In this document: positions 3,201 through 38,609 of the stretch, piece by piece | Numbering within the stretch: the stretch's first letter is position 1 | Layout: every line of letters begins with the position of its first letter | Origin: Candidatus Nomurabacteria bacterium | GTDB lineage: Bacteria > Patescibacteriota > Patescibacteriia > UBA1558 > GWA2-36-10 | DNA: 64,000 nt | Assembly (NCBI GenBank): GCA_020632415.1 | Contig: JACKFO010000002.1 | Coordinates: 23,244-87,243 of the forward strand | Direction of reading: 5' to 3' | The notes under the pieces: generated by a model | Seen by the model: only the letters and a program-made list of their open reading frames with translations | The model's database searches: none | Told to the model about the DNA's origin: nothing | Position numbers and translations under genes: made by a program

Positions 3201-6104
3201 ATGGCAAATTTCAAAGATCAAGAAAAAGAAATATTGGATTTTTGGGAAAGTGATCAAACTTTTCAGAAATCTTTAGATAAGACAGCGCCTCTTGGTGACT
3301 ATCTTTTTTATGATGGGCCACCATTTGCTACTGGCACGCCGCATTATGGACACTTGGTAGCTAGTATTATGAAAGATGTTGTGCCTCGTTTTTGGACGAT
3401 GCGTGGTTATCACGTTGAGCGTAAATGGGGTTGGGATTGTCATGGTTTGCCAGTCGAAAATATTGTTGAAAAAGAATTAGGCTCAAAATCTAAGCAAGCA
3501 ATTGAAGAAATGGGCGTCGCTAAATTCAACGAACTTTGTCGTTCTAAAGTCTTGAGTTATGTTACTGAATGGGAAAAGACGGTTAATCGGATGGGACGTT
3601 GGGTTGATATGAAAAATGCTTACCGCACGATGGACATTGAATTCATGGAATCTGTTTGGTGGGTTTTTAAAGAGCTTTGGGATAAAGATTTGATTTATCA
3701 AGATTATCGTTCGATGCATATTTGTCCTCGTTGCGAAACAACTCTTTCTCAACAAGAAGTTTCGGAAGGCTATAAAGACATCAAAGATTTATCGGTTACA
3801 GCGGAGTTTGAATTAATCAATGAGCCCGGTACTTTTGTTTTGGCTTGGACGACCACTCCTTGGACTTTGATTGCTAACGTTGCTTTAGCTGTTGGTGAAA
3901 ATATTGATTATCTAAAAGTAGATACGGGCAAAGATAAATTAATCATTGCCAAAGAGTTAGTTGAAAAATTTTCTAATGATTTAGGTGATTATAAAGTTCT
4001 TGAAGAATTTAAAGGTAAAAATTTAATTGGTCAGAAATACAAACCACTTTTTGGTTATTATGCAAGTGACGAAAATTTAGAAAATAGAGAAAATGGCTGG
4101 CAGATTGTGTCCGCAGATTTTGTGACAACTGAAGAAGGAACTGGCGTTGTCCATATTGCTCCAGCTTTTGGTGAAGATGATATGAGCTTGGGCAAAGAAA
4201 AGAAGCTTCCTTTTGTCCAGCATATCGGAATGGACGGCGTTATTAAAGAAGAAGTTGCAGATTTTAAAGGTTTACATGTCAAGCCAATAGATGATGTGCA
4301 AGCTACTGATGTGGCGATTATCAAATATTTAGCAGGCAAAGAATTATTATTTGCTAAAGAAAAATATGAACATAGCTATCCGCATTGCTGGCGTTGTGAT
4401 ACTCCATTATTGAATTATGCTACTTCGTCTTGGTTTGTAGCCGTGACTAAAGTAAAAACCAAAGCACAAGAAACGGCTAAGAAGATAAATTGGACTCCAG
4501 ATCACATCAAAGAAGGTCGTTTTGGAAAGTGGCTAGAAGGAGCTCGTGATTGGTCTATTTCTCGTCAAAGATTTTGGGCTTCAGTGATGCCAATTTGGCA
4601 ATGTCAAAAGTGTGAGGAAAAAGTAGTATTTGGTTCAGTGGCTGATTTGGAAAAAGCTAGCGGCCAAAAAGTGACTGATTTGCACAAGCATATTGTTGAT
4701 GAAATCACTTTTGCTTGTAAGTGCGGAGCTACGATGAAACGTGTGCCCGATGTTTTGGATACTTGGTTTGATTCTGGCTCGATGCCATATGCGCAGATGC
4801 ATTATCCATTTGAAAATGAAGAAAAATTTAAGAATGTTTTTCCAGCCAAGTTTATTGCCGAAGGAATTGATCAAACTAGAGCTTGGTTTTATTATCTCCA
4901 CATTTTAGCTACTGCTTTGAAGGGCTCTCAAGCTTTTGATAACGTGATTGTCAATGGCATTGTTTTGGCTGAAGATGGCAAGAAGATGTCCAAGAAATTA
5001 CAGAATTATCCAGATCCAAATGAAATAATGGAACAATACGGCGCTGATGCTTTGCGTTTGTATTTATTATCTTCACCCGTAATGTTGTCTGAGAATTTAT
5101 CTTTTGTCGAAAAAGATCTGCAAACAACTTATCGTCGTTTTATTGGCTTGTTGCAAAATGTCTTTAGTTTTTATCAGATGTTTAAAGGTGAGGCCAAAAT
5201 AGATGGAGATAAATTACCACAATTAGATAATGATTTAGATAAATGGATTGTTGCTAAATTTGTTACTTTACAAAAAGAAGTTACGGAAGCAATGGAGGAA
5301 TATAATTTAGTCAAAGCCACTCGTCCTTTGTTTGATTTTGTTGATGAGCTATCTACTTGGTATTTGCGACGTAGTCGCGATCGTTTCAAAGGCGACGATC
5401 AAAAAGATAAGGAGCAAGCTATTCAGACTTTGGCTTTTGTCTTAAAACAATTTGCCCGCACTATTGCACCGTTTACTCCAATGACCGCTGAGATTATCTG
5501 GCAAGAGTTTTCGCCAGAAACTTCTGTGCACTTGGAAAGCTGGGGAGAATATGATGAAAAATTAGTGGATCTTGATATTTCAAAGAAAATGGACGCTGTC
5601 CGTCAGATTGCAGAGGCGGTTCATGCGCTTCGTGCTGGAGCTGGCATGAAAGTGCGTCAGCCATTAGCTAGTTTAGTGGCTGATGAGAAATCTGGTTTAA
5701 CTGGACAAGAAAATTATCTAGAGCTTTTAGCTGATGAATTAAATGTAGAGCAAGTTAAGATTGGCGAAGTAAAAGAAGAGGCTGGTTGGTTAGTTGCTGA
5801 AGTAAATGATTTTAAAGTAGCCTTAGATACAAACTTAACTGACGATTTAAAAGAAAGAGGAGTAATGCGTGAATTAATTCGTTTTATTAATGCTTTAAGA
5901 AAAGACTCTGGTTTACAACCAAGTGATAGCCCAGTAGAAACCTATCAAACTGATTCTCCAGTTTTATTAGCTGTGATTGAAAAGTACAAAGAAGAAATCA
6001 TCAAAGCAACTTCCGCTGGTGATTTAGAAAAAGTAGATTCAAGTCCTGAAAAACAAGTTGTTCAAAAAATAAACAGTGAAGAAATTATTTTAGGTATCAA
6101 ATAA
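3201..6104 (+). CDS. ileS: isoleucyl-tRNA synthetase
   Basis: Class I HIGH (PHYGHL) and KMSKK (KMSKKLQN) motifs, editing domain, CxxC zinc knuckles; 967 aa. Confidence 0.95.
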   Translation: MANFKDQEKEILDFWESDQTFQKSLDKTAPLGDYLFYDGPPFATGTPHYGHLVASIMKDVVPRFWTMRGYHVERKWGWDCHGLPVENIVEKELGSKSKQAIEEMGVAKFNELCRSKVLSYVTEWEKTVNRMGRWVDMKNAYRTMDIEFMESVWWVFKELWDKDLIYQDYRSMHICPRCETTLSQQEVSEGYKDIKDLSVTAEFELINEPGTFVLAWTTTPWTLIANVALAVGENIDYLKVDTGKDKLIIAKELVEKFSNDLGDYKVLEEFKGKNLIGQKYKPLFGYYASDENLENRENGWQIVSADFVTTEEGTGVVHIAPAFGEDDMSLGKEKKLPFVQHIGMDGVIKEEVADFKGLHVKPIDDVQATDVAIIKYLAGKELLFAKEKYEHSYPHCWRCDTPLLNYATSSWFVAVTKVKTKAQETAKKINWTPDHIKEGRFGKWLEGARDWSISRQRFWASVMPIWQCQKCEEKVVFGSVADLEKASGQKVTDLHKHIVDEITFACKCGATMKRVPDVLDTWFDSGSMPYAQMHYPFENEEKFKNVFPAKFIAEGIDQTRAWFYYLHILATALKGSQAFDNVIVNGIVLAEDGKKMSKKLQNYPDPNEIMEQYGADALRLYLLSSPVMLSENLSFVEKDLQTTYRRFIGLLQNVFSFYQMFKGEAKIDGDKLPQLDNDLDKWIVAKFVTLQKEVTEAMEEYNLVKATRPLFDFVDELSTWYLRRSRDRFKGDDQKDKEQAIQTLAFVLKQFARTIAPFTPMTAEIIWQEFSPETSVHLESWGEYDEKLVDLDISKKMDAVRQIAEAVHALRAGAGMKVRQPLASLVADEKSGLTGQENYLELLADELNVEQVKIGEVKEEAGWLVAEVNDFKVALDTNLTDDLKERGVMRELIRFINALRKDSGLQPSDSPVETYQTDSPVLLAVIEKYKEEIIKATSAGDLEKVDSSPEKQVVQKINSEEIILGIK

Positions 6105-6833
6105 ATGATTTTTAAAACAGAAGCTTTTGTTTTGCGCGCCATTCCTTGGCGAGAAGCTGATCGTCTTTATTATTTTTTTACTCCACACGAAGGAGTAATT
6201 ACCGGAGTAGTCAGGGCAGCTGCTAAATCTAGCAGTAAGTTAGCTGGACAGCTTTTGCCTTTTGCTAAAGTACAAATTATGATTGGCCGAGGAAAACTAG
6301 ATCATGTTGCGGGCACTAGTACGATTAAGGATTACCAAAATTTAAGAACGGATTTAAAAAATTTGTCATTAGCCGCTTCAATCGTGGAGTTATTTTTGGG
6401 AGAATTATCCAGCGGCGCCAAACAACAAGAGTTTGATTTATTAGAGGAAGTTTTTACTTTATTAAATGAAGAAAATTTAAAATCAGAGGATAAATTGATT
6501 TTGGTCAGAACTTTTTTGTGGAAATTTTTATCCCTAAGTGGTTGGCAGCCACAGTTAGATGCTTGTTTTGTCTGTCAGAAAAGTATTTCGCAAGGAGCGT
6601 ATTTGCCAGGACGTGGTTTAGTTTGTCATCAGCACAATTTGGCTGGGGCTTTGTTAATTAGTCCAGATTTGCTACAATTTTTAAGAGAGATCTTAAAAAC
6701 ATCATTAAAAGATAGTTTGGATTTAAAATTAAATCCAGAATTAAATAAAGAATGGTTGCAGGCTTCTCAGGCTTATTATCAAGAAGTCTATGATCGACCA
6801 TCAAGAGCATTAAAATTATTTGTTTATGGCTAA
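6105..6833 (+). CDS. recO: DNA repair protein RecO
   Basis: N-terminal OB fold plus C-terminal Cys4 zinc finger (CFVCQ...CHQH); ATG immediately after the ileS stop. Confidence 0.8.
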   Translation: MIFKTEAFVLRAIPWREADRLYYFFTPHEGVITGVVRAAAKSSSKLAGQLLPFAKVQIMIGRGKLDHVAGTSTIKDYQNLRTDLKNLSLAASIVELFLGELSSGAKQQEFDLLEEVFTLLNEENLKSEDKLILVRTFLWKFLSLSGWQPQLDACFVCQKSISQGAYLPGRGLVCHQHNLAGALLISPDLLQFLREILKTSLKDSLDLKLNPELNKEWLQASQAYYQEVYDRPSRALKLFVYG

Positions 6834-10133: not shown

Positions 10134-10505
10134 ATGACAGGAAATATTTTTCTACAAACAATCAAAACTCTCTTCCTAGATTTTCTAGGGGAGATTTTGT
10201 ATTTTCCTTTTTGGTGGTACGGTAGTGGTTTGAAAAAAATTGTTTTATATATCTGGCAAAGTACCAGAAGATTAGCTGGAAATTTGTCTTTGCGCATTAT
10301 GCTCAAAAATCTTTTCCGCCCAATGTACGGTCAGTATGATCGAGCTGGTCGGGCAATTAGTTTTTTTATGCGCATCATTTTATTGTTTAGTCGTTTAGTT
10401 GTTTTTATTGTGCTGAGCATAATGTATCTTTGTATTTTATTAGTCTGGATGATTTTGCCGATTTTGATTCTTTGGCAGTTGCTTAGAAATTTGCATATTT
10501 TATGA
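10134..10505 (+). CDS. hypothetical polytopic membrane protein
   Basis: ATG 7 nt downstream of a perfect TATAAT (10121-10126); 3-4 hydrophobic helices; end overlaps the ClpC-like start. Confidence 0.5.
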   Translation: MTGNIFLQTIKTLFLDFLGEILYFPFWWYGSGLKKIVLYIWQSTRRLAGNLSLRIMLKNLFRPMYGQYDRAGRAISFFMRIILLFSRLVVFIVLSIMYLCILLVWMILPILILWQLLRNLHIL

Positions 10506-13207
10506 AGGCTATCAGATTCAAACAATGTGATCAGTGCCAAGACAAGAGCAAATCCTGTAATGCTTGTTTTGGAATAAAAAACTTTTATTTTTCTAATAAC
10601 AATTTTTTTTATTGGGATAAAAAAATAAATCGCAGCTCAATCTTGGTCAGAGAGTTGAGATTTTTTTTGGACTTGATAATCAATGCAGCTTTGATTGCGG
10701 CGACAATTTTTAGTGTAGTTTTAATTTATCGGATTTTAAATAGCGTTGAGTTTGATCCGAGGAATTTTTTGGATTTTTTGATTAGCCCTAGTCGTAATAA
10801 TTTTACCCTACTGATTTTACTTGTTTTGGACATGTATCTTTTTTATCGACTTTCTTTACCGGCTCAAAAAAGAGATTTGCAAGCCAAGCGACTTAAGGAT
10901 ACTAGTAAATTTACTCGTTATAATTTTGCTGAGAGCTTAAATCAAGAAACGGAAATGATTTTGGACCGAGCTTGGCTTTATGCTTTGCACAAAAAAGTTT
11001 GGCCAGTGACGGTTTGGCATTTACTTTTTGTTTTATTAAATGACAAAGACATTCGAGTTGTTTTAGCTCGCTTGGGAGTTGGTAGTAAAAATTTGCAAGA
11101 AATTATCGATAAGAATTTAGCTAGCTTAGTTGATAAAAATAATAATAATTCTTTAAGCAGAAAAGAAAAATTAGATTTAAGTTTTGAATTAAAAGAAGTT
11201 ATTTTAAACGCCTATTGGCATTCTAGCGTTGTTCGTAAGGATCAATATATCAAAGAGATTGATTTGCTAGCTGGTTTGGTTGCTTTGAGTCAAGATATCA
11301 AAGACTTTTTTTATGATTTTGAAATCGATGATGATAAAATAGACAATGTGATAGCTTGGATTGGTATCAATCTGCGCTTGGCAGAACGCTATCGTCGTTA
11401 TCGTGGTCGCTCGGCTTTTAAGCCAAAAACTGGCATTAATCGTGGCTACACGGCTATTGCCACGCCTCTTTTGGATAGTTTTTCAGCTGATTTAACTCAG
11501 GCCTCGCGCTTTGGTCGTTTGCCACTTTCTGTTGCTAGAGAAGCAGAAATTGCCGAAGTAATGTCAACAATGGAAAGTGATTTGGCTTCAGTAGTTTTGG
11601 TTGGGCCCAATGGAGTTGGTAAAACAAATATTATTGAAGGCATCTCTAATCGAATGATGGCCGAAGAAGTGCCAGCTATTTTTCAAGATAAAAGGTTAGT
11701 TAGTATTTCTTTGCCAATGTTAGTTTCCGGAGCATCAGAATCTGGCCGTTTGGAAGAGAGATTTTTAGGCATTTTAAACGAAGTGGCAATTTCTGGAAAT
11801 ATTATTTTAGCGATTGATAATATTCATAATTTGGTTGGCATCAGCTCAGCAGGACGAGAGGGCGTGGATTTATCAGAAGTTTTGGCTGCTGAAATTAGAA
11901 ACAAAAAAGTTTTGTTAATTGCTTCGACCAATAATCAAGATTATGTAAAATATTTAGAAGGAAGTGAACTTGGTCAAGCTTTGCGTAAAATAAATATCGA
12001 AGAGCCAAATAAAAATCAGGCAATTCAAATCATGGAAGCAAATGTCTCTTGGCTAGAAAATAAATATAAAATTTATTTTACTTACAATGCTCTTGAAAAA
12101 ATTTATCAGCTCACGGATCGTTATTTGCCTGATATGTATTTGCCAACCAAGGCTTTAAATATTATGGAAGAGATTGCCGTCAGAGTTTCTAAGTCAGGAA
12201 GACAGGATATGCTTGTTCGGGCAGAGGATGTAGCAGAATTGATTTCTCATAAAACACAAATTCCATTGACCCAAGTTTCTGATCAGGAATCTGTTAAGTT
12301 ATTAAATTTAGCAGAAGAAATGCATCAAAGAATAGTCGGGCAAGATGAGGCTGTCCAGAAGGTAGCAACTGCTTTACAGCGAGCCAGAGCAGAACTCAGG
12401 GATCAGAGTCGTCCGATTGCTAACTTTTTGTTTTTGGGACCAACTGGTGTTGGTAAAACAGAACTAGCAAAAACTGTGGCTGAGAAATATTTTGGTGCAG
12501 AGGAGAACATGATTCGTTTGGACATGTCTGAATACCAAAACAAAGATAGTTTGGATCGGCTTTTAGGCTCCAATACTCAGAGCACGCCTGGCATTTTGAC
12601 TGAGGCAGTCAGACACAAGCCTTTTGCGTTATTGTTGTTAGATGAGATTGAAAAAGCACACCCAGATATTTTAAATGTTTTTTTACAAGTCATGGAAGAT
12701 GGTCGTTTGACTGACGCTTTGGGCAGAACCGTTGATTTCACCAATGTGATTATGGTTGCTACTTCCAATGCCGGCACAGAGTATATTCAGCAACAAATTG
12801 AAGCTGGTCAAAAGATTGAAGATTTCCAAGAAGATTTAATCAAAACAAAACTACAGGGAATTTTTAGACCAGAATTTTTGAATCGTTTTGACAGTGTAGT
12901 GGTCTTTAGACCGTTAAATGAAAGTGAGATTTTACAAATCGCTGGTTTGATGCTAAATAAAGTTAAAAATAGATTAGAAGCCAAAGGCATTTATTTCGAA
13001 ATTACAGAGTCTGCACAAAAAGAATTAGCTCAACTTGGCTTTGATCCGGTATTTGGCGCTCGTTCTTTAAGAAGAGTGATTCAAGAAAAAGTAGACAATG
13101 CTCTGGCTAAGTTTTTGTTGCAAGGCAAGATTGGTCGACGAGACGTAGTGGTTTATGACCAAGGCGGAGAAATAAGTATCAAAAAAGCAGCTACTTATCA
13201 AAAATAA
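10502..13207 (+). CDS. ClpA/ClpC-like double-AAA+ ATPase with N-terminal Cys4 zinc ribbon and two predicted TM helices
   Basis: CDQCQ...CNAC ribbon; TM segments; Clp_N repeat; Walker A/B x2 (GPNGVGKT/ILAIDNIH; GPTGVGKT/LLLLDEIEKAHPD); sensor and C-terminal domain. Confidence 0.8.
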   Translation: MKAIRFKQCDQCQDKSKSCNACFGIKNFYFSNNNFFYWDKKINRSSILVRELRFFLDLIINAALIAATIFSVVLIYRILNSVEFDPRNFLDFLISPSRNNFTLLILLVLDMYLFYRLSLPAQKRDLQAKRLKDTSKFTRYNFAESLNQETEMILDRAWLYALHKKVWPVTVWHLLFVLLNDKDIRVVLARLGVGSKNLQEIIDKNLASLVDKNNNNSLSRKEKLDLSFELKEVILNAYWHSSVVRKDQYIKEIDLLAGLVALSQDIKDFFYDFEIDDDKIDNVIAWIGINLRLAERYRRYRGRSAFKPKTGINRGYTAIATPLLDSFSADLTQASRFGRLPLSVAREAEIAEVMSTMESDLASVVLVGPNGVGKTNIIEGISNRMMAEEVPAIFQDKRLVSISLPMLVSGASESGRLEERFLGILNEVAISGNIILAIDNIHNLVGISSAGREGVDLSEVLAAEIRNKKVLLIASTNNQDYVKYLEGSELGQALRKINIEEPNKNQAIQIMEANVSWLENKYKIYFTYNALEKIYQLTDRYLPDMYLPTKALNIMEEIAVRVSKSGRQDMLVRAEDVAELISHKTQIPLTQVSDQESVKLLNLAEEMHQRIVGQDEAVQKVATALQRARAELRDQSRPIANFLFLGPTGVGKTELAKTVAEKYFGAEENMIRLDMSEYQNKDSLDRLLGSNTQSTPGILTEAVRHKPFALLLLDEIEKAHPDILNVFLQVMEDGRLTDALGRTVDFTNVIMVATSNAGTEYIQQQIEAGQKIEDFQEDLIKTKLQGIFRPEFLNRFDSVVVFRPLNESEILQIAGLMLNKVKNRLEAKGIYFEITESAQKELAQLGFDPVFGARSLRRVIQEKVDNALAKFLLQGKIGRRDVVVYDQGGEISIKKAATYQK

Positions 13208-13221
13208 TCAAAAAAACTTAA

Positions 13222-13243
13222 GGAAAACCCTTAGGTTTTTTGT
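13222..13243 (+). terminator. AT-rich rho-independent terminator (ClpC-like)
   Basis: aaaccc-tta-gggttt-type hairpin plus T-run. Confidence 0.45.
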
Positions 13244-13307
13244 ATTTTTAGCAAAATTAAGTTATAATAAATTTACTATTGACAAAATTGTCATCTCGTG
13301 GTAATTT
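13238..13307 (+). promoter_or_regulatory. tandem sigma70-like promoters with operator-like dyads upstream of the high-GC island
   Basis: TTGTAT-N17-TATAAT (13238-13268) and TTGACA-N17-TAATTT (13279-13307). Palindrome TGACAAAATTGTCA overlaps the second -35; dyad CTCGTG-N8-CACGAG at 13295-13313. Confidence 0.4.
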
Positions 13308-13398
13308 CACGAGAACTTGTCAAAAGTCCGTTCTTTGACATCAGAGTTCAAAATCAAATTGAATACAACTGGGAAACCAAGAGAGGGAGAGAAATCTC

Positions 13399-14772
13399 AT
13401 GAAGAAGCTCAGTTCGCTCTGCATCGCCTTGCTGGCGATCGTTTTTGCTCTGCGTCCGGCTTCGGCCGAAACCTTCACCGTTCCGGACGATGGGACGATT
13501 CAGGATGGTGTGGATGTCACCGGCAGCGGTGATGATATCTACATCAGTCCGGGCGTGTATACCGAAACGGTGTACTTTGATGCGGACACCGTCAGCATCC
13601 ACGGCTTGGAGGCCGACCTGACCACCATCCGCAACGGCACTTTCGTCTTCAACGGCGGATCCACAATGGAAACCGTGCTTCATGATCTCGGCTTCGATGG
13701 TCCCGATGGCGCGGCGATCAGCCTTTTCAATGGCTCTGGCGTGACGGTTCAGAACGTGTTGATACGTGACAAAGAGGGAACGGCCGCGATTTTCGTGGGC
13801 AGCAATTCACATCTCGTCCTCAGCACGGTCTGGGCCTGGAACAATTCCAACGGTGCTCTGCAGGGCTATGCCACGGCCAGTAGCAATTTCGGTCAAATCG
13901 AGATCTACAACGCTCGTTTCGAAGGTAACGCCTTAAACGGTATTCCGACGATGATTCCGCAGATCGAGAATGGCCTTCTGACCTATCGACCCTACCAAAG
14001 CGATGATCGCAACCAGAACTTTGGTGGCGGCATCTACTTGCCTCTGGGCGGCGGTCGAGTCTCGATCTGGCGCAGTCTCTTGGCCAACAATGACGTGAAT
14101 TTCTTGGGCGGCGCTATCAGTGGCGGCAACGATGCCAACATTGATTCAACGATCGTCGATCTGGATCTCTGCACCATTTTCGGCAACGATGCTGGGCAGA
14201 ATGGATCGTTTTTCTATGGTCGCAATGGGAAAATTCGACTGAACATTTCCAATAGCCTGTTCGTCGACAACGGCATCAACGCCTTCGTCGGCAATGTCAG
14301 CTTCGAGGGGCACAACGTGGCCTGGCCGAACAACTACGACATTCCTGGCCTGATCGTCGAGGATCCTCTTTTCTGCGATCCGGATGGTCGCAATTTTCAG
14401 CTCGGCTACAGCTCCTTCTGCCTCCCCGAAAACAACCAGTGGGGGGAGCAGATCGGCGCCTTCGGCGCCGGTGAATGCGATGGAGTCGGTGTCGAGGCGA
14501 TCCAACAGCCGATCAACTTCGGCCTGACAGCCCATCCCAATCCTTTCAATCCCACGACCACCATCAACTTCAATCTGCAGTCGGCCAACCACGTCTCGCT
14601 GATCATCTACGACCTGGAAGGTCGGCTGGTGGCCAATCTGCTCGATGGCATGCTCGGTTCTGGACAGCACAGCGTCAACTTCGACGCCAGCAAGCTGTCC
14701 AGCGGCAGTTACTTCGTCTACATGACCACCAACGACCAGCAGCAGGTGATGAAGTTGCTGCTGCTCAAGTAG
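13399..14772 (+). CDS. secreted beta-helix-like protein with T9SS (Por) C-terminal sorting domain
   Basis: Signal peptide (LLAIVFALRPASA); Gly/Asn-rich parallel beta-helix-like repeats; C-terminus ...PNPFNPTTTINFNL...IYDLEGRLV...SGSYFVYM...KLLLLK typical of the T9SS CTD; SD GGGAGAG. Confidence 0.7.
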   Translation: MKKLSSLCIALLAIVFALRPASAETFTVPDDGTIQDGVDVTGSGDDIYISPGVYTETVYFDADTVSIHGLEADLTTIRNGTFVFNGGSTMETVLHDLGFDGPDGAAISLFNGSGVTVQNVLIRDKEGTAAIFVGSNSHLVLSTVWAWNNSNGALQGYATASSNFGQIEIYNARFEGNALNGIPTMIPQIENGLLTYRPYQSDDRNQNFGGGIYLPLGGGRVSIWRSLLANNDVNFLGGAISGGNDANIDSTIVDLDLCTIFGNDAGQNGSFFYGRNGKIRLNISNSLFVDNGINAFVGNVSFEGHNVAWPNNYDIPGLIVEDPLFCDPDGRNFQLGYSSFCLPENNQWGEQIGAFGAGECDGVGVEAIQQPINFGLTAHPNPFNPTTTINFNLQSANHVSLIIYDLEGRLVANLLDGMLGSGQHSVNFDASKLSSGSYFVYMTTNDQQQVMKLLLLK

Positions 14773-14827
14773 ATCTCAATCACCCGAAGGGCGGGTGTTG
14801 ACTTTATCTCTATGGAAAGGAGTGAGC

Positions 14828-15340
14828 ATGAGGAAACTCATTGTTCCGCTGCTGGCAGTGTTCTTGCTGCTGGCAGGCTGCGACTGCGTTCAGGCTCGCG
14901 GACCGACCACCGTCGATGAGAGTACGGGTCTGGTCTGCGACAACATGGGCAACTCCTGCGACATCATGATCAGCGGCCTCGGCTACGACGAACTCGCCTG
15001 GGAGGTCGAGTTCTCCGGCGTGGACATCAGCGACAACTCCTTCGTGGCGTCCGATTCCAGTCGGGACCTGCTGATCCTGGCGGTTGACAGCGGCGTCAAC
15101 GAAGGCTGTTTCGAGATCAGCTTCTATCCGGTGCTGATGAATTCGACGATCACCGGCGAGGCCTTCTCGAGCGACAAGATGGACACGGCGACGGCATTCC
15201 TGGCCAACATCGGCGAGGGCATCAACGGCGAAAACGGAGGCCGGCAAGTCCTCAAGTGTCTGATCGACAGCCAGTTCGTCAACGGCTACATGATCTGCCG
15301 CACCGACAACCGCGACGGGACGATCAAGTCCGCCGCCTGA
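14828..15340 (+). CDS. lipoprotein (lipobox LLAGC), unknown function
   Basis: Signal peptide plus lipobox; SD GGAAAGGAG; high GC. The track start at 14795 is a likely upstream extension. Confidence 0.55.
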   Translation: MRKLIVPLLAVFLLLAGCDCVQARGPTTVDESTGLVCDNMGNSCDIMISGLGYDELAWEVEFSGVDISDNSFVASDSSRDLLILAVDSGVNEGCFEISFYPVLMNSTITGEAFSSDKMDTATAFLANIGEGINGENGGRQVLKCLIDSQFVNGYMICRTDNRDGTIKSAA

Positions 15341-15395
15341 CCCAGGCTGTGTGCTAGAGGCGTCTAGTGCACAGCCAGAACTCTGAATTCCGCAC

Positions 15396-15436
15396 CCCCG
15401 CATCCGAGCTTGACTTGGATGCGGGGTTCTTTTTTT
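15396..15436 (+). terminator. GC-rich rho-independent terminator closing the high-GC island
   Basis: ccccgcatcc-(11-nt loop)-ggatgcgggg followed by TTCTTTTTTT; an additional hairpin at 15346-15378. Confidence 0.7.
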
Positions 15437-15528
15437 ACACCGATTATTAGCTTTGGAGTCAATATTGCTAAATATACTGATATTAGTTATAATTTTAATG
15501 ATTTTTATAGATTAAAATATTCTGTTTT

Positions 15529-16917
15529 ATGCAGCAAGAACGCAAATTTGATAAAGTAGTAAGTTTGGCAAAAACCAGAGGCTTTGTTTTTCCTTCTTCT
15601 GAAATTTATGGAGGCTTAGGTTCTATTTATGACTACGGTCCTTTGGGAGTTGAGCTAAAAAATAACATCAAAAAAGCTTGGTGGGATTTTATGAATGCTC
15701 GTCGTGATGTAGTTGGTTTGGATTCTGGAATTTTGATGCATCCAAAGATTTGGGAAGCTTCTGGACACGTTCAAGGCTTCAATGATCCTTTGGTGGATTG
15801 CAAAAAATGCAAAAGCCGTTTTCGAGCTGATCATTTGTTAGAAAATTTAGGAATTAAACCAGATTTTCGTCCGGGCGCCAAAATTGATTTGGCTGATGTA
15901 AGGTGTCCAGAATGTGGCGGAGAATTGACGGACATTCGTCAGTTTAATTTGATGTTCAAAACTTTTATTGGTCCATTAGAAGAAGAAGCAAACCAAATTT
16001 ATTTACGTCCAGAAACTGCTCAAGGAATTTATGTTAACTTTCTAAACGTTAAAGAAAGTATGCGTTTGAAAATGCCTTTTGGTATTGCTCAGATCGGCAA
16101 AGCTTTTCGTAATGAGATTACTCCGGGTAATTTTATTTTCCGTATGCGAGAATTTGAGCAAATGGAAATGCAATATTTTGTTGAAGAAAAAGAAGCTAAA
16201 AAAGTTTTTAAAAATTGGCAAGAATTACGTCGAGAATGGTACTTATCTTTGGGAATCGATCCAAAGAATTTGAAATTCAGAGAGCATGCCAAGGATGAAT
16301 TAGCGCATTATGCTCAAGCGGCAATTGACATTGAATATAATTTTGCTTTTTCAGGAGACGATAGCTTCAAAGAATTAGAAGGCGTGCATCATCGTGGTAC
16401 TTGGGATTTGAGTCAGCATCAGAAATTTTCTGGCCAGAAATTAACAGTCAAAGATGAAGAAAACAAAGACTATCTACCAACCGTGATTGAAACCTCTATT
16501 GGCGCTGATCGAGCTTTTTTAGCATTTTTGATGGACGCTTATACAGAAATTGATGGCGGTCGTAGCACAACTACCGAAAGCATCAAAGAAAAAGAAGTGG
16601 TTTTAAAACTTCATCCAAAATTAGCGCCGATTAAAATTGCTATTTTGCCACTTTCCAAAAAAGAACCACTAGCTGATAAAGCCAAAGAAGTTTATGAGTT
16701 GTTAGTAAAAAATTATCGTATTCAATACGATGAAACTGGTTCAATCGGCAAGCGTTATCGCAGGCAGGATGAAATCGGTACTCCGTATTGTGTGACTGTT
16801 GATTTTGATACTTTGGAAAATAACCAAGTGACGGTTAGAGACAGAGATACAATGCAACAGGAGCATCTTGATATTGCTGAGTTGAAAAATTATTTTCAAA
16901 AGAAGTTTGATTTTTAA
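15529..16917 (+). CDS. glyQS: glycyl-tRNA synthetase (alpha2 type)
   Basis: Class II motifs; Cys4 insertion (CKKCKSRF...CPECGG); anticodon-binding C-terminus. Confidence 0.9.
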
Positions 16918-32549: not shown

Positions 32550-35500
32550 ATGTTTAAAAATCAAGAAAAAAAGAAAAAAAAGCTTAAGGAGCCTGTTTTT
32601 TTGTTATTTAAATTAAAAAAAAGTTTGATCTTTGGTTTAATTTTAGGTTTAATTTTTCAGACCTTTAGCCTTAATGCTCCTCAAGTACAAGCTGCCACTT
32701 TATTAAGCGATGATTTTACGGGTACAACTATTGATACCGCTAAGTGGGTAGAATATGATGCGGCAGGTAGCGGTGGAGAGGCTGGTAATATTCAGCAAAA
32801 TGATTCTTTATCAGTTACTAGTAGTAATAATGGAACCACAGCTCTTGTGTCAGTGGATAGTTTTTCTGCGGATGGTTTAGAAATTTCTTCTGTGATTACT
32901 ACAAGTAATGGTAAGTTCATTTTGGGATACGGAGATCGTGAGTGGTCATTGGCAGGACATAGAGGATATTTACTTTATAATTCTGGTTCTAATATTCTGG
33001 GTTTAGCTTGGAATAATAATGTATTAAAGCAAAATGTTGCTTGTGGCACGATGACCAGTGGAGCCAACTATAAAATGAAAATTATTCCTACTGGTTTTGA
33101 GGTCTATAAAAATGATGCTTTGCAATGTACCGTTACCCCACTTACTGCTGATTTGGTAGATGGTTATTCAATATTTTTAGAATCAAATGATGCGATTTCT
33201 TATTTTGATGATCTTTTAGTCGTTGGTACTGTCAGTGAGGAAGCAACTGTGCCGGCCGCTCCTACTATTGGTACGGCTATAGCTGGTGATACAGAAGCAA
33301 GTATAAGTTTTACTCCGGGATCAAATGGTGGTTCAGCAATTACGGGTTATACTGTGACTTCAAATCCAGGAGCCATTACAGCAACAGGTTCTGCTTCGCC
33401 GATTACAGTCACTGGTCTCACTAATGATACAGAATATACTTTTACAGTGACTGCTACTAACGCCATTGGCACTTCTGATCCTTCGGCTGCTTCTAATGCT
33501 GTGACGCCACACGTAACAGATATTTTTGACGAAGCAGCTTTGTGGCTCAAAGCAGATGCAATTACTGGCTTAAATGATGGCGATGCAGTTACTACTTGGG
33601 GAGATAGCTCTGTCTATGCTTTGGACGCAACACAATCAACAGTAGATTATAAACCAACTTATAAAACAAATATCATAAATTCTCAGCCGATAGTTAGATT
33701 TGACGGTATCAATGATTTATTGCTTACTCCTTCTACAGCCGCCGCTGCTGGTATCACGGTTTTTACGGTTGTGAAAAGTACAGATACGAGTTCTGGCTAT
33801 TTTGCTGCTTTTGGTGGTAATAATAATGCAATTATTACGGGTTTTAGTAATGCTTTATGGGAATATTATAGCAGCCCGAGAACTACTTTGGGCAATATAT
33901 CTACTTCTGAATTTCAAATTATCACCTCAAGAGTGGGCTCGAGTTTGACGAATCCAATTAGTTTGGGTGCAGATGCTGGTAGAGTCGCTCCTTGGGCAGG
34001 AGATGTGGCAGAATTTCTTGTATTCAAATCAGTTTTGTCAGATACTGACTATAATACCGTGTATGATTATTTAAATAATAAATATTTTTCAGCCGTCGAT
34101 CCAGTTGAGCCAGATGCGCCAAGCGAATTAGTAGCTACGCCAGCTAGTGAACAAATGTTGCTTTCTTGGACAGCACCGGCAAGTGATGGCGGAGCAACAA
34201 TTACAGATTATGTTGTAGAATACAAATTAAGTTCTGAGCCTACTACTTGGACTACTTTTGATGATGGTGTTTCTACTGAAACTACTGCTACGGTCACGGG
34301 GCTAACTAATAATTTGAGTTATGATTTTAGAGTGTCGGCAACTAATTCAGTAGGCACAGGTGCTGTTTCAGATACAGCAACGGAAACGCCAGCGCTCAGC
34401 GTACCCTCAGCACCTATTAGTTTGTCAGCTAGTGGTGGTAATAGTGATGCTACTCTTTCTTGGACAGCTCCCGCAAGCGATGGTGGAGCAGCGATTACAG
34501 ATTATGTTGTAGAATATAAACTAAGTTCTGAGCCTACTACTTGGACTACTTTTGACGATGGTGTTTCTACTGAAACTACTGCGACGGTTACGGGGCTAAC
34601 TAATAATTTGAGTTATGATTTTAGAGTGTCGGCAACTAATTCAGTAGGCACAGGTGCTGTTTCAGATACAGCTACTGCCACAGTAGAGTATGTTTTGTTA
34701 ATAGATGATTTTACTGGCACAACTATTGATTCTAGCAAATGGCTGGAGATCGATACTGCTGGCGACGGTGGTGATACTGGCAATGTCCAACAAAATGATT
34801 CTTTGTCGGTTGCTAACAGTGAATCTGGTAGCGACGAAGGGCTTAATGCTTTAGTTTCAGTAGATAGTTTTGATGATAACGATTTAGAGATTTCTGCCAA
34901 ACTGACCGCCGGAGGCCTGACCTTATTTGGCTATGGTGATCGTCAGTGGAATTTGGCTGGCAATAAAGCATATATAATTTATTTAAGTGGCGGCACCTTA
35001 ATGGGCTTGACTTGGCATGACGCTTCTTACGCCAATTCTAATACAAGCTGCGGTACTTATTCCGCTGGGGCAACTTATAAAATGACGATTATTTCCACTG
35101 GCTTTGAAGTTTATAAAAATGATGTGTTGCAGTGCACGGTTAGTCCGGGAGACGGTAATTTGGTAAATAATAAGCCAATATTTTTAGAGTCCAATGGCGC
35201 TACTGCTAGTACTTTTGATGATGTTTATGTAACTGGTACTTATACTGAGCCGACCGCACCAGAGGCTCCGACTATTGGTACTGCTACAGCGGACAATGCG
35301 CAAGCAACTATAACGTTTACCCCTGGTTCATCAGGAGGTTCTCCGATCACCAGCTACACTGTCAGCTCAGATCCAGGTGGCATTACTGCTACTGGTAGCT
35401 CTTCGCCTATTACAGTGACTGGGCTAACTAATGACACTGAATATACTTTTACAGTAACTGCTACTAATGCTATTGGTACCTCTGATCCGTCAGCGGCCTC

Positions 35501-38500
35501 AAATGCGGTTACTCCTACTGTGCCAACCGTTCCTGATCAAGTAACTGACTTGATAGCTTATGGGTATAATCAGCAGGCCTTACTTAGTTGGACTGCTCCA
35601 GACAATGGTGGCGCACCTATTTCAGACTATATAGTAGAGTACAAACCTTCATCAGGAAGCGAGTGGGGAATTTTTGATGATGGTACATCTGCAACTCTTA
35701 AAGCGATCGTTACTGGTTTGGAAAACGATATTCAATATGATTTGAGAGTTTCAGCAGTCAATAGTGGTGGCGCTGGTCTGGCTTCTGATCTTGCCACTGC
35801 CACTCCTAGGGCTTTAACAGAATTGGTAGTTGTCATTAACGGTGAAAGTAATTCTGGTGGACAAGCTCATAATAGCGAGGCAACAGAAGAAGAGCTGTCT
35901 CCTACAGAAGAAGTGCAAATATTAAATAATACATCTTTTGTTTTTGAAGATTTAGACATTGGAACTAATAATAATATTGATCATTGTTGTTGGTTGAATT
36001 CAGCGACACAACATGGTTTAGAATTAGAATTAGCTAGTTCCACAAAGGCTAATAATTTTCCAGATAATCCTCAAATTCATTTGATCAAAACTGGCCAAGG
36101 TGGTTCACGTCTTGCTCAGTGGAATGTTGGCGGTACATATTGGACTAAATTTTTAGAAAGAGTAAATGCCGCTAAAACACAATTATCCGCCAATCCCCAA
36201 TGGATAACGTGGATTAGTATAGGTATTAATGACTATTTGGCCGGGACAACGGTTTCGACTTTTAAGACAGAGTTGATTGCTCATATTAATAAAATAAAAG
36301 ATGAATTACCCGGAACCATAGTCATCTTAACTCAATTTCAAGCAATGAGCGCTAACTCTGGGTACCCAACATATAATGTGGTCATGGACGAAATAGCGGC
36401 TTCTGAAAATAATGTTTTTGTTGTCGATTCTACAGGAGCTGCTTTAGACGATGGTAATCATTGGAGTTATTCTGGGCTAAAAGTCGTTGCCGATAGAATG
36501 GTTACGATCACAAACACCCAACTAGGCCTGATCTACCCGGGAGTACCTACTGACCTTAGTGTGAATCCTGGCGCTACTTCTGCCGATCTAACATGGACTG
36601 CTCCAATAGCAAATGGTGGAGAAACTATCACAGATTATCTTATTGAATACAAAACTTCAGCAGAAAGTTCTTGGACTACTTTTTCTGATGGCACTTCTAC
36701 TGACACCACTGCCACTGTCACTGGTTTAGAAGATAGTACAGATTATAATTTTAGGGTTTCAACAGTAAATAGTAATGGAGCAGGAAATCCTTCTTTAACA
36801 GATGCTACTACTACCGATGGCACAGCCCCAGTAAACTCTAGTGTCACTGCTACTCCGACAGATAATTCAGCTACTATCACTTGGACTACAGATGAAGCAG
36901 GATCAAGTATTGTAGATCATGGATTAAATTCTAGTTATGGATCTTCTACTTCAGAGACTGATACTTCTCCTAGAGTCACAGATCATAGTGTCACTCTTTC
37001 CAATCTTCTCTCTTGTACCACTTACCATTACAGAGTCAGATCAAAAGATCTTGCTCAAAACCAAGGTACTTCTTCAGACTCTACTTTCATGACCACAGGA
37101 TGTACTGGAGATGCAGAAGTAGAACAGACTACCAATGACTCTGTTGCCACTTCTACTGGTGCTACAATTAATTTAAATTCAGGCACAGCCAATCTTACTT
37201 TAGATATTCCAGCAGGTTTTGATGAAGATGCTGCAAGTGATGTCGAATTCCAAGTCAATCAATTAACGACTAATACTTTGCTTTTAACTACAGGTAGCCC
37301 TAGTAGCAGAAGCGTTATTGGTTCGCATACTTATGACCTTTCAGCTTTTAGTGACGCTAACACAGCCTTAACTAATTTTGATCAAGCATTAACTCTCACC
37401 TTTACTTATCTAGATAGTGAAGTAGAGGGAATGGATGAATCAAGTCTAGTCATTTACTACTGGGATGGTGATTCTTGGGAAACACTAGATAACTGTTCAG
37501 TTAACACTACAGCCAACACTGTCTCTTGCACCACTACTCACTTTACAACCTTTGCTTTATTTGGGTCAGCTGCCGCAGAAGAATCAGCTGAAGAAGATGT
37601 ATCTGCTGGAGGCGGAGGAATGGCTATAATCCCTTCTCAAGGAGAAGGACAAGCAGACATTCATATTGGCATGCACCAAACAAAGGCAGGAGTAATCTTA
37701 GATAGTCAAAGCATTAATCTTTTAATGTACATTAATTCAGAGTTAGACTTTCAATTAAAAAATACAAACTTTAACAAAAAATTAATCATCAAAGATCTAA
37801 ACATGTTAAGCTCTGAAGCAGAAATAGAGCTTGCTAACCAAATACTAAAATTAAAGCCAGGACAGTCAGCGCTACTAGATCTTAACCACAACCAAATAGA
37901 TGATCTTAAATTAACTTTTAACACTTTACTTAACAATCGTTTAGATTTAACCTTAACATTCTTAACCTCTAGTGATCTCATTAATTTTGCCAATTATAAT
38001 CTTTTAGTTAAAAGATCAGACGATCCAGCAGTTTATTTGATTGAAAGTGGTCAAAAAAGACTTATTCCAAGCGAAAGTGTTTTCTTAAGTTATGGCTTTC
38101 AATGGTCGGATATTGAAATAGATGATGATCTAGAGCAGTATCCTACAGGAGAGGTACTTACTTATCCAGAACATAACTTTCCAGACGGAACTTTAGTTAA
38201 AGAAAAAAACAAACCACAAGTCTATTTATTGGAAGATCATCAAAAAAGATATATTACTAGCGAACAAATCTTCTTAAGCCATAACTTCAAATGGTCAGAT
38301 ATTATTGAAGTAGATACTCTAAGTTCTTATCCTATTGGGCAAGACCTCAGTATTAAGCAACAAAATAATCTCAATATTACTAGAAGTTTAAACTTAGGTA
38401 TGACCGGAGAAGATGTCAGACAATTACAAACATTACTTGCTCAAGACAAAACAGTGTACCCAGAAGGCAAAATAACCGGATACTTTGGACCTCTTACCGA

Positions 38501-38609
38501 ACAAGCTATTCAAAGATTCCAGCTTAAATACCAGATAGTTAACTCAGCGCAAGAGCAGGGCTATGGAGTGTTTGGACCAAAGACTAGAGCTAAAATTAAT
38601 TCCTTATAA
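32550..38609 (+). CDS. giant (2019 aa) multidomain cell-surface protein: 2x LamG-like, several FN3 repeats, SGNH/SASA-type esterase-like domain, C-terminal PG_binding_1 domain
   Basis: N-terminal signal/anchor; two LamG-like modules (LLSDDFTGTTIDTAKW... / LLIDDFTGTTIDSSKW...); FN3 repeats (SWTAP...YDFRVSATN); SGNH blocks GESNSGG / GINDY / DDGNHW (nt ~35826-36510); C-terminal PG-binding repeat (nt ~38391-38606). Confidence 0.8.
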   Translation: MFKNQEKKKKKLKEPVFLLFKLKKSLIFGLILGLIFQTFSLNAPQVQAATLLSDDFTGTTIDTAKWVEYDAAGSGGEAGNIQQNDSLSVTSSNNGTTALVSVDSFSADGLEISSVITTSNGKFILGYGDREWSLAGHRGYLLYNSGSNILGLAWNNNVLKQNVACGTMTSGANYKMKIIPTGFEVYKNDALQCTVTPLTADLVDGYSIFLESNDAISYFDDLLVVGTVSEEATVPAAPTIGTAIAGDTEASISFTPGSNGGSAITGYTVTSNPGAITATGSASPITVTGLTNDTEYTFTVTATNAIGTSDPSAASNAVTPHVTDIFDEAALWLKADAITGLNDGDAVTTWGDSSVYALDATQSTVDYKPTYKTNIINSQPIVRFDGINDLLLTPSTAAAAGITVFTVVKSTDTSSGYFAAFGGNNNAIITGFSNALWEYYSSPRTTLGNISTSEFQIITSRVGSSLTNPISLGADAGRVAPWAGDVAEFLVFKSVLSDTDYNTVYDYLNNKYFSAVDPVEPDAPSELVATPASEQMLLSWTAPASDGGATITDYVVEYKLSSEPTTWTTFDDGVSTETTATVTGLTNNLSYDFRVSATNSVGTGAVSDTATETPALSVPSAPISLSASGGNSDATLSWTAPASDGGAAITDYVVEYKLSSEPTTWTTFDDGVSTETTATVTGLTNNLSYDFRVSATNSVGTGAVSDTATATVEYVLLIDDFTGTTIDSSKWLEIDTAGDGGDTGNVQQNDSLSVANSESGSDEGLNALVSVDSFDDNDLEISAKLTAGGLTLFGYGDRQWNLAGNKAYIIYLSGGTLMGLTWHDASYANSNTSCGTYSAGATYKMTIISTGFEVYKNDVLQCTVSPGDGNLVNNKPIFLESNGATASTFDDVYVTGTYTEPTAPEAPTIGTATADNAQATITFTPGSSGGSPITSYTVSSDPGGITATGSSSPITVTGLTNDTEYTFTVTATNAIGTSDPSAASNAVTPTVPTVPDQVTDLIAYGYNQQALLSWTAPDNGGAPISDYIVEYKPSSGSEWGIFDDGTSATLKAIVTGLENDIQYDLRVSAVNSGGAGLASDLATATPRALTELVVVINGESNSGGQAHNSEATEEELSPTEEVQILNNTSFVFEDLDIGTNNNIDHCCWLNSATQHGLELELASSTKANNFPDNPQIHLIKTGQGGSRLAQWNVGGTYWTKFLERVNAAKTQLSANPQWITWISIGINDYLAGTTVSTFKTELIAHINKIKDELPGTIVILTQFQAMSANSGYPTYNVVMDEIAASENNVFVVDSTGAALDDGNHWSYSGLKVVADRMVTITNTQLGLIYPGVPTDLSVNPGATSADLTWTAPIANGGETITDYLIEYKTSAESSWTTFSDGTSTDTTATVTGLEDSTDYNFRVSTVNSNGAGNPSLTDATTTDGTAPVNSSVTATPTDNSATITWTTDEAGSSIVDHGLNSSYGSSTSETDTSPRVTDHSVTLSNLLSCTTYHYRVRSKDLAQNQGTSSDSTFMTTGCTGDAEVEQTTNDSVATSTGATINLNSGTANLTLDIPAGFDEDAASDVEFQVNQLTTNTLLLTTGSPSSRSVIGSHTYDLSAFSDANTALTNFDQALTLTFTYLDSEVEGMDESSLVIYYWDGDSWETLDNCSVNTTANTVSCTTTHFTTFALFGSAAAEESAEEDVSAGGGGMAIIPSQGEGQADIHIGMHQTKAGVILDSQSINLLMYINSELDFQLKNTNFNKKLIIKDLNMLSSEAEIELANQILKLKPGQSALLDLNHNQIDDLKLTFNTLLNNRLDLTLTFLTSSDLINFANYNLLVKRSDDPAVYLIESGQKRLIPSESVFLSYGFQWSDIEIDDDLEQYPTGEVLTYPEHNFPDGTLVKEKNKPQVYLLEDHQKRYITSEQIFLSHNFKWSDIIEVDTLSSYPIGQDLSIKQQNNLNITRSLNLGMTGEDVRQLQTLLAQDKTVYPEGKITGYFGPLTEQAIQRFQLKYQIVNSAQEQGYGVFGPKTRAKINSL
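32697..33510 (+). repeat. LamG-like+FN3 module, copy 1 of an intragenic duplication
   Basis: Co-linear protein similarity to the copy at 34695-35535 (same LamG-like order; FN3 ending ...TEYTFTVTATNAIGTSDPSAASNAVTP in both); DNA diverged. Confidence 0.7.
34164..34690 (+). repeat. two tandem ~294-bp FN3-encoding repeats, near-identical at DNA level
   Basis: 34199-34388 vs 34493-34682 differ at only a handful of positions (mostly synonymous wobble changes). Confidence 0.8.
34695..35535 (+). repeat. LamG-like+FN3 module, copy 2
   Basis: See copy 1. Confidence 0.7.

Follow-up and report, generated by a model that had tools for sequence, protein, structure and literature searches.

The window analysed here is a stretch of 64,000 nucleotides from contig JACKFO010000002.1 (assembly GCA_020632415.1, source organism Candidatus Nomurabacteria bacterium), and its central feature is an open reading frame (ORF) of 457 aa (13399..14772, + strand) with a C-terminal sorting domain (CTD) of type IX secretion system (T9SS) type at its end. 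The ORF lies between the gene of a Clp-type (ClpB/ClpC-like) AAA+ ATPase (10502..13207, +; hereafter clp) and the glycine–tRNA ligase (GlyRS) gene glyS (15529..16917, +), both of which were assigned by family matches and are host-like in composition. The interval between these two genes is called the clp–glyS slot in the following, and related genomes carry divergent alleles of the ORF in the same slot. An identical protein is deposited at NCBI as MCB9802419.1 (“T9SS type A sorting domain-containing protein”, source Candidatus Nomurabacteria bacterium), so the mere presence of the domain is not new. The apparent novelty lies in four features that occur together: conserved synteny, mosaic exchange of alleles, an orphan CTD under selection, and maintained GC-richness.

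The sorting domain comprises residues 377–457 of 457, i.e., the extreme C-terminus of the protein (14527..14772 with the stop codon, +; based on profiles, fold, and alleles). Residues 380–454 scored 41.8 bits (E 8e-11) against TIGR04183 Por_Secre_tail (curated cutoff 23), with the profile being covered from position 3 to 70 of 72, and the ORF scored 42.9 bits against PF18962 (Pfam cutoff 27) as well as 110 bits with a local hidden Markov model (HMM) that was built from 115 CTDs, all from proteins outside the candidate phyla radiation (CPR). AlphaFold2 (AF2; input alignment of 25 sequences) modelled the 457-aa protein with a pLDDT of 86.9 and a pTM of 0.80. In this predicted structure, residues 377–455 form a seven-strand Ig-like beta-sandwich that superposes on the CTD of mirolase (8qb1, TMt 0.67), on those of substrates lodged in the SprA translocon (8glk_D and 8gl8_D, TMt 0.66–0.67), and also on PorZ (5m11); across 8qb1, 8glk_D, 8gl8_D, and 4g5a, TMt ranged from 0.63 to 0.67. 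The motifs PNPFNP, GxY, and, at the terminus, K-x-x-L-x-K were invariant across four aligned alleles. Because the scores exceed the HMM cutoffs and position, length, and predicted fold are those of the family, the domain is confirmed as a true T9SS type A CTD. This was the claim of an earlier first-pass annotation of the window, which placed the domain at 14480–14772; these coordinates are correct and correspond to residues 361–457, i.e., a flexible linker plus the CTD. Two phage proteins in BFVD (A0A6J5M064 and A0A6J5L910, annotated as “Secretion system C-terminal sorting domain”, predicted structures) resemble the CTD of the model, so that the fold occurs in viral proteins too.

Three further parts precede the CTD. 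A Sec-type signal peptide (MKKLSSLCIALLAIVFALRPASA, cleavage motif ASA; 13399..13467, +) was read from the sequence by its n-, h-, and c-regions; AF2 places a helix at residues 2–17, within the predicted signal peptide, and a signal of the same kind was read from all alleles. The passenger (residues ~25–335; 13471..14403, +) is predicted to be a right-handed parallel beta-helix with regular three-strand coils (AF2, residues 25–335, pLDDT >90) and constitutes the variable, swappable module. Its Foldseek matches were phage tailspikes, capsule depolymerases, pectin methylesterase (CE8), and PL6/pectate lyases (PL1). The PL6 alginate lyase 7dmk was matched at E 4.9e-5. At the family level, PF13229 scored 18.4 in the window allele, under its cutoff of 25.9, and passed in two sister alleles (28.3 in L094 and 32.9 in L095; L-numbers designate the related loci treated below). 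The beta-helix cargo proposed in the first-pass annotation is supported at the level of the fold (AF2, Foldseek). Helix and CTD are connected by a Cys-rich linker (DPLFCDPDG..CLPENN..GEQIGAFGAGxC) with a subsequent flexible stretch (together 14362..14526, +; based on alleles and AF2). The linker cysteines C326, C341, and C360 were invariant in the four aligned alleles, and the flexible stretch (residues 360–375) was modelled with a pLDDT <60.

The near relatives of the adjacent GlyRS all belong to the Patescibacteria (Komeilibacteria at ~78% identity, then Parcubacteria and Magasanikbacteria), and together with the NCBI source name they identify the host as CPR, as assumed at first pass. The T9SS has been described as unique to the Fibrobacterota–Chlorobiota–Bacteroidota (FCB) superphylum (PMC12421860, PMC12398890), and the CPR have been assigned to a monoderm clade (10.1101/2021.05.31.446380). 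The scan for T9SS parts covered the 64-kb window of the 842,326-bp contig, in which the ten largest other ORFs, both ORFs of the GC-rich island described below, and both flanking genes were compared with family libraries. No T9SS or outer-membrane component was found among these ORFs, which agrees with the earlier statement that the window holds no sign of such a system. The ten largest other ORFs encode housekeeping functions and monoderm-type envelope proteins (an LCP ligase, a PG_binding_1 surface protein, and a T4SS-pilin/Big_5 protein). Across 186 kb of clade sequence, the local HMM detected a CTD in just this gene, bar one sub-threshold ORF at L091, and no paper linking T9SS CTDs with CPR was found.

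The sorting-domain ORF is part of a GC-rich island (13380..15437, +; ~2.1 kb, ~56% GC, 0.72 GC at third codon positions (GC3)), which was absent from the first-pass annotation and runs from a ribosome-binding site through two coding sequences to a terminator of its own. The window as a whole has 36% GC, and the genes flanking the island have a GC3 of 0.28–0.29. The borders of the island are sharp, and it is the sole segment of such GC within the 64 kb. The elevated GC spans the ribosome-binding site, the coding sequences, and the terminator, with the promoter regions being excluded. Neither a tRNA nor an Rfam match was found in the island, which rules out an RNA gene as the cause of its composition. 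The second coding sequence (14828..15340, +) is also GC-rich and encodes 170 aa with a lipoprotein-type signal (LLLAGC, read from the sequence); it had no family match and no homologue detectable in the other slots. The island ends with a strong, GC-rich intrinsic terminator (13-bp stem and T-run; 15396..15436, +), right after which similarity to other loci restarts.

The left edge of the slot is the intrinsic terminator of the upstream clp gene (13211..13241, +; terminator scan), and the right edge is the promoter block of glyS (15458..15496, +; TTGCTA, 17 nt, TATAAT at 15465–15493), which is kept in every related locus, with an occupied slot as well as with an empty one. Between the left edge and the island, a promoter-like block (TTGACA, 17 nt, TAATTT; 13279..13307, +) was read from AT-rich DNA and is followed by a 5′ leader of ~90 nt. 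The promoter scanner did not call this block, the −10 element of which is weak. In the form TTGACAAA...GTGnTAT, the block is conserved in three carriers (window, L001, and L003). The promoter block of glyS (GTCAATATTGCTAAA..GATATTAGTTATAATTT) is near-invariant in the window, L001–L003, L084, L086, and L089, an unusually strong conservation for an intergenic element, given that proteins of these genomes are just 75–85% identical.

Long antisense ORFs were observed within the island (14146–14670 and 14810–15403 of the window, both −) and among the public gene calls of related loci (L001, 9869–11185, −; L002, 9176–9730, −); they are by-products of the island composition. At L002, the true upstream ORF lies on the plus strand and encodes a predicted secreted protein, the minus-strand call being an artefact.

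Slot alleles in related genomes

A search of 5.8 billion proteins returned three full-length relatives above ~29% identity (39–44% identical), all of which (L001–L003) are encoded between a clp gene and glyS on contigs of differing sources. Two more alleles in the same slot were retrieved by a metagenome scan, one of them in three samples (L092–L094) and the other at L095. Thus, six distinct alleles from independent assemblies were obtained, all in the slot between the Clp-type ATPase gene and glyS. The slot genes always have 52–58% GC and a GC3 of 0.66–0.74, compared to a GC3 of 0.28–0.39 in the flanks. The TIGR04183 cutoff was passed by all five alleles with an intact C-terminus (36.7–46.3 bits in the sisters). 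In a tree of Clp sequences, the four carriers with complete flanks (window and L001–L003) form a clade that is sister to genomes with an empty site. The slot is empty at L086–L090 (179–279 bp between the two genes) and occupied by other genes at L091. In the closest GlyRS relative (L084, 85% identity), it holds a lone lipoprotein gene of 192 aa (373–951, +; GC ~0.45) and no CTD gene. No relationship of this lipoprotein to the 170-aa ORF of the window was detectable, the resemblance being insignificant (z 1.2). At L091, an outgroup genome, a 159-aa slot ORF (5664–6143, +; GC ~0.45) adjoins an ABC transporter gene and scored 16.6 bits against TIGR04183 (cutoff 23) and 18 bits with the local HMM; this ORF could be what is left of a decayed cassette.

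Outside the slot, neither the 5.8 billion proteins nor the JGI metagenome contigs nor IMG/VR yielded a relative closer than ~29% identity, and a scan of viral contigs returned none that carries the slot gene. When the donor search was performed with the non-CTD part alone, the best outside matches were beta-helix proteins of ≤29% identity, some of which come from Zixibacteria- or Cloacimonetes-type organisms. The weak metagenomic relatives are located on contigs of uniformly 59–66% GC, and PF02415 or POMP repeats occur in proteins distantly related to the passenger.

The alleles are mosaics with a conserved linker and CTD and a beta-helix that is swapped between distantly related members of the clade. 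In the first four alleles (34–45% identity overall), identity was 28–42% in the helix, 47–69% in the Cys-rich linker, and 45–71% in the CTD. L002 and L003 have Clp and GlyRS proteins of 92% and 95% identity, respectively, and their DNA similarity ends 45 nt past the clp stop codon and restarts 74 nt ahead of the glyS start. L001 and L003 share a DNA block of 83.5% identity that reaches back without interruption from glyS and takes in the final 425 nt of the slot gene (i.e., linker and CTD), with no DNA similarity in the helix part. L003 and L095 represent nearly the same organism, as their Clp proteins are 98.9% identical, and have CTDs of 97% and helices of 23–41% identity. The helix of L095 is instead 59–94% identical to that of L001, though the Clp of L001 is just 69% identical. 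Likewise, L002 and L094 are 19–35% identical in alignment columns 41–160 and 62–97% thereafter.

Upstream of the locus, positions 1–743 of L003 and 3303–4045 of L001 were observed to be 93% identical over 743 nt, beside Fic and PD-(D/E)XK genes, whereas the DNA identity of the clp genes of the two loci is just ~70%, which suggests that mobile or defence-island DNA was shared recently.

Selection, allele age, and base composition

The ratio of nonsynonymous to synonymous substitution rates (dN/dS) was 0.14–0.50 on every unsaturated allele segment, with values of 0.14 on the CTD (L002/L094) and 0.16–0.21 on the helix. Since the protein is under selection, it is functional. The first-pass annotation had suggested a non-functional protein, and this suggestion is contradicted by these ratios, which include the CTD, by the presence of six alleles in one slot, by the terminator that the island possesses, and by the conserved promoter-like block upstream.

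Saturation was assessed at the fourfold-degenerate sites of residues that are identical, the shuffling being confined to one amino acid at a time. At these sites, the slot alleles were statistically saturated (z 0.3–1.6), with the exceptions of L001/L003 (z 3.7), which share the 3′ block, and L001/L002 (z 2.2). In contrast, the clp genes of L002/L003 were far from saturation (z 9.1), which indicates that the alleles are much older than the genomes presently carrying them. Despite saturation, GC at fourfold-degenerate sites stays at 0.62–0.81 in all alleles.

The direction of substitutions in the 3′ block was determined by a three-taxon star analysis of L001, L003, and L095, which is valid under any recombination history and blind to where the alleles resided while changing. 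At 61% GC, 34 GC-to-AT changes were balanced by 34 AT-to-GC changes (implied equilibrium 0.61), and at third positions the respective counts were 18 and 13 (implied equilibrium 0.70). Controls from the same genomes were in balance at 0.44 / 0.40 (Clp) and 0.43 / 0.37 (GlyRS). The slot gene thus departs from the host regime with P = 0.0035 for all sites and P = 0.00076 for third positions, in a small sample. A polarised GC test with saturated outgroups was discarded, as it was dominated by a parsimony artefact and gave opposite directions in GC-rich and AT-rich genes. Taken at face value, a flux balanced at high GC means that the high GC is held, and that the island is not merely foreign DNA that has yet to ameliorate. 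Three causes could account for its upkeep: a recombination hotspot with biased gene conversion, selection that acts on codons or mRNA, or supply from an unseen GC-rich reservoir. The slot gene offers a small natural system in which to ask what maintains base composition.

Readings of the slot protein

Variants that occupy the same slot in relatives, are shuffled, and are under selection argue for a working, fast-swapping surface protein, not a dead import. In our assessment, the gene probably encodes a two-module surface or extracellular protein of a CPR bacterium that is exported via Sec and uses its CTD without a T9SS. Export by Sec only, as had been considered at first pass, would be the most plausible route. 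The variable right-handed beta-helix would be the module that acts, by binding or by cleavage, on a polysaccharide at the surface of a partner or host cell; which of the two it does, like the identity of the ligand, is a guess. The constant C-terminal module would consist of the Cys-rich linker and the CTD, the latter being kept as a folded Ig-like beta-sandwich with a T9SS-independent role, for instance by serving as stalk or anchor or by mediating interactions. The cassette would have entered an ancestor of the Komeilibacteria-related clade between clp and glyS, its source being a GC-rich bacterium of T9SS-bearing type. Since then, old and divergent alleles would have been retained as a set and shuffled among clade members by homologous recombination, as in the specificity cassettes of phage tailspikes or surface antigens. 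Regarding the import from an FCB-group donor proposed at first pass, a foreign GC-rich origin is plausible in view of the island and of distant relatives that are GC-rich or of Zixibacteria-/Cloacimonetes-type. A simple one-off import is contradicted by the lack of a donor above ~29% identity, the saturated alleles, the mosaic structure, and the fact that the alleles are closest to each other.

Several points weigh against the two-module reading. The sample consists of six alleles on nine contigs including the window. The Foldseek matches of the beta-helix are generic and weak (E 5e-4 to 7e-2), and the preservation of all three CTD motifs would also be expected if some machinery still reads the domain. 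Additionally, a GC3 of ~0.7 persists in a genome with a GC3 of ~0.3, which this reading alone does not explain.

Among known systems, hypervariable surface antigens such as capsule and O-antigen loci or flagellin and pilin alleles are replaced by recombination through conserved flanks. The slot resembles such loci in its old, diverged alleles between conserved housekeeping flanks, in an allele tree that is incongruent with the flank tree, and in the occurrence of empty and filled sites among relatives; it differs from them by comprising one gene (sometimes two) and by a foreign GC-rich composition without drift to that of the host. Receptor-binding proteins of the phage tailspike/depolymerase type share the beta-helix body, with weak structural matches, and the combination of a constant attachment module with a swappable specificity module and breakpoints between them. 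Unlike in tailspikes, the constant module is C-terminal here and a T9SS-type CTD, and the gene is chromosomal and on no viral contig. The chlamydial Pmp/polymorphic beta-helix adhesins (PF02415) are likewise a polymorphic family, and PF02415/POMP is carried by the distant passenger relatives; the slot protein has no autotransporter beta-barrel, however, and the window allele has no significant PF02415 match. With T9SS type A cargo (gingipains of P. gingivalis, mirolase of Tannerella forsythia), the protein shares a Sec signal, a passenger, and a seven-strand sandwich of ~80 aa, but it is found in a monoderm CPR lineage, without T9SS parts among the scanned ORFs and with a single CTD gene in 186 kb. 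Given this CPR context and the single CTD gene, the cleavage and A-LPS linkage that T9SS organisms perform are unlikely for this CTD, and since the context of a T9SS in a diderm cell is either contradicted by the lineage or beyond the window, the protein should not be filed as T9SS cargo.

The locus would be a case in which purifying selection keeps a T9SS sorting domain in a lineage that should have no means of using it, and this selected orphan CTD has either a T9SS-independent job or a part in some interaction between organisms that is not yet known. A life attached to other cells is assumed for CPR bacteria, and to our knowledge almost none of the molecules that set their partner specificity are known. 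A secreted beta-helix protein with a specificity module that is shuffled between lineages at a fixed locus would be a concrete candidate for such a molecule.

The alternative that survives best, although we regard it as unlikely, is that the clp–glyS slot is a hotspot repeatedly fed from a GC-rich reservoir outside current sampling, for example a mobile element or the bacterium that serves the epibiont as host, in which case the age and the GC-richness of the alleles would reflect evolution outside CPR genomes. Repeated import accommodates that all slot cargo is GC-elevated, even non-homologous ORFs (the 170-aa ORF of the window and the upstream ORF of L002/L094), that the alleles are older than their carriers, that the substitution flux is balanced at high GC, and that distant relatives lie on contigs of 59–66% GC. 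It is at odds with the failure to find any carrier outside this CPR slot, or anything closer than ~29%, among proteins, JGI, and IMG/VR, as well as with the conservation of the AT-rich promoter-like block upstream of the gene in three carriers. Neither att-like repeats nor an integrase were found (locus and 64-kb repeat search). Furthermore, the 83.5% block of L001/L003 links glyS to the 3′ part of the gene without a break, which implies that exchange uses the CPR flanks.

A second alternative, which we hold to be quite improbable, is that the CTD is a working sorting signal, recognised either by CTD-reading machinery that has so far been overlooked in this CPR clade or by the T9SS of an attached diderm FCB-group host. 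The latter version, in which the CTD is still read by the host and not by the CPR cell, deserves very little credence by itself; the surface machinery of the host would then display or process the protein, and the helix would track the surface glycans of the host. A working signal would explain the invariance of PNPFNP, GxY, and K-x-x-L-x-K in four alleles despite 34–45% overall identity, the dN/dS of down to 0.14 on the CTD, and the superposition of the predicted domain on substrate CTDs bound in the SprA translocon. These motifs are, however, structural parts of the beta-sandwich and need not be recognised in order to be conserved, and no route into the periplasm of a host is known. Moreover, T9SS organisms have multi-cargo repertoires, whereas one CTD gene was found in 186 kb of sequence from this clade, and CPR are monoderm.

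The reading of the first-pass annotation, a recent FCB import that is stranded and non-functional in its new host, can draw on the GC-rich island with its foreign codon usage and on the absence of T9SS parts from the window ORFs scanned. It is barely tenable in the face of six alleles under a dN/dS of 0.14–0.50 in the same slot, of a CTD that is more conserved than the passenger, and of alleles that are saturated at synonymous sites and have no close donor.

Virtually no weight is given to an assembly chimera or contamination, i.e., a foreign GC-rich fragment stitched into a CPR contig, for which the abrupt GC jumps at both borders could be cited, as the same architecture with different alleles occurs on contigs from NCBI, Logan, JGI, and ENA-type sources, both flanks belong to one genome, and two loci share an uninterrupted junction block of 83.5% identity. 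Diversity-generating retroelements are common in CPR and the gene is hypervariable, but its being the target of such an element or of other local hypermutation is hardly credible, with no template-repeat copy of any island segment within 64 kb, with variation across the whole helix in exchanged blocks in place of a short C-terminal variable region, and with the C-terminus being the conserved part.

Other probable surface genes in the window

Two further ORFs of the window were noted for their domain content. A protein of 2019 aa (32550–38609, +) contains six fn3 domains, a SASA/GDSL-type carbohydrate esterase, a purple-acid-phosphatase N domain, and a C-terminal PG_binding_1, and looks like a giant wall-anchored surface enzyme; inside its gene, local GC climbs to 0.49 (35251–35550). 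In a protein of 531 aa (59320–60915, +), a T4SS/TrbC-type pilin domain occurs together with Ig-like domains of the Big_5 family.

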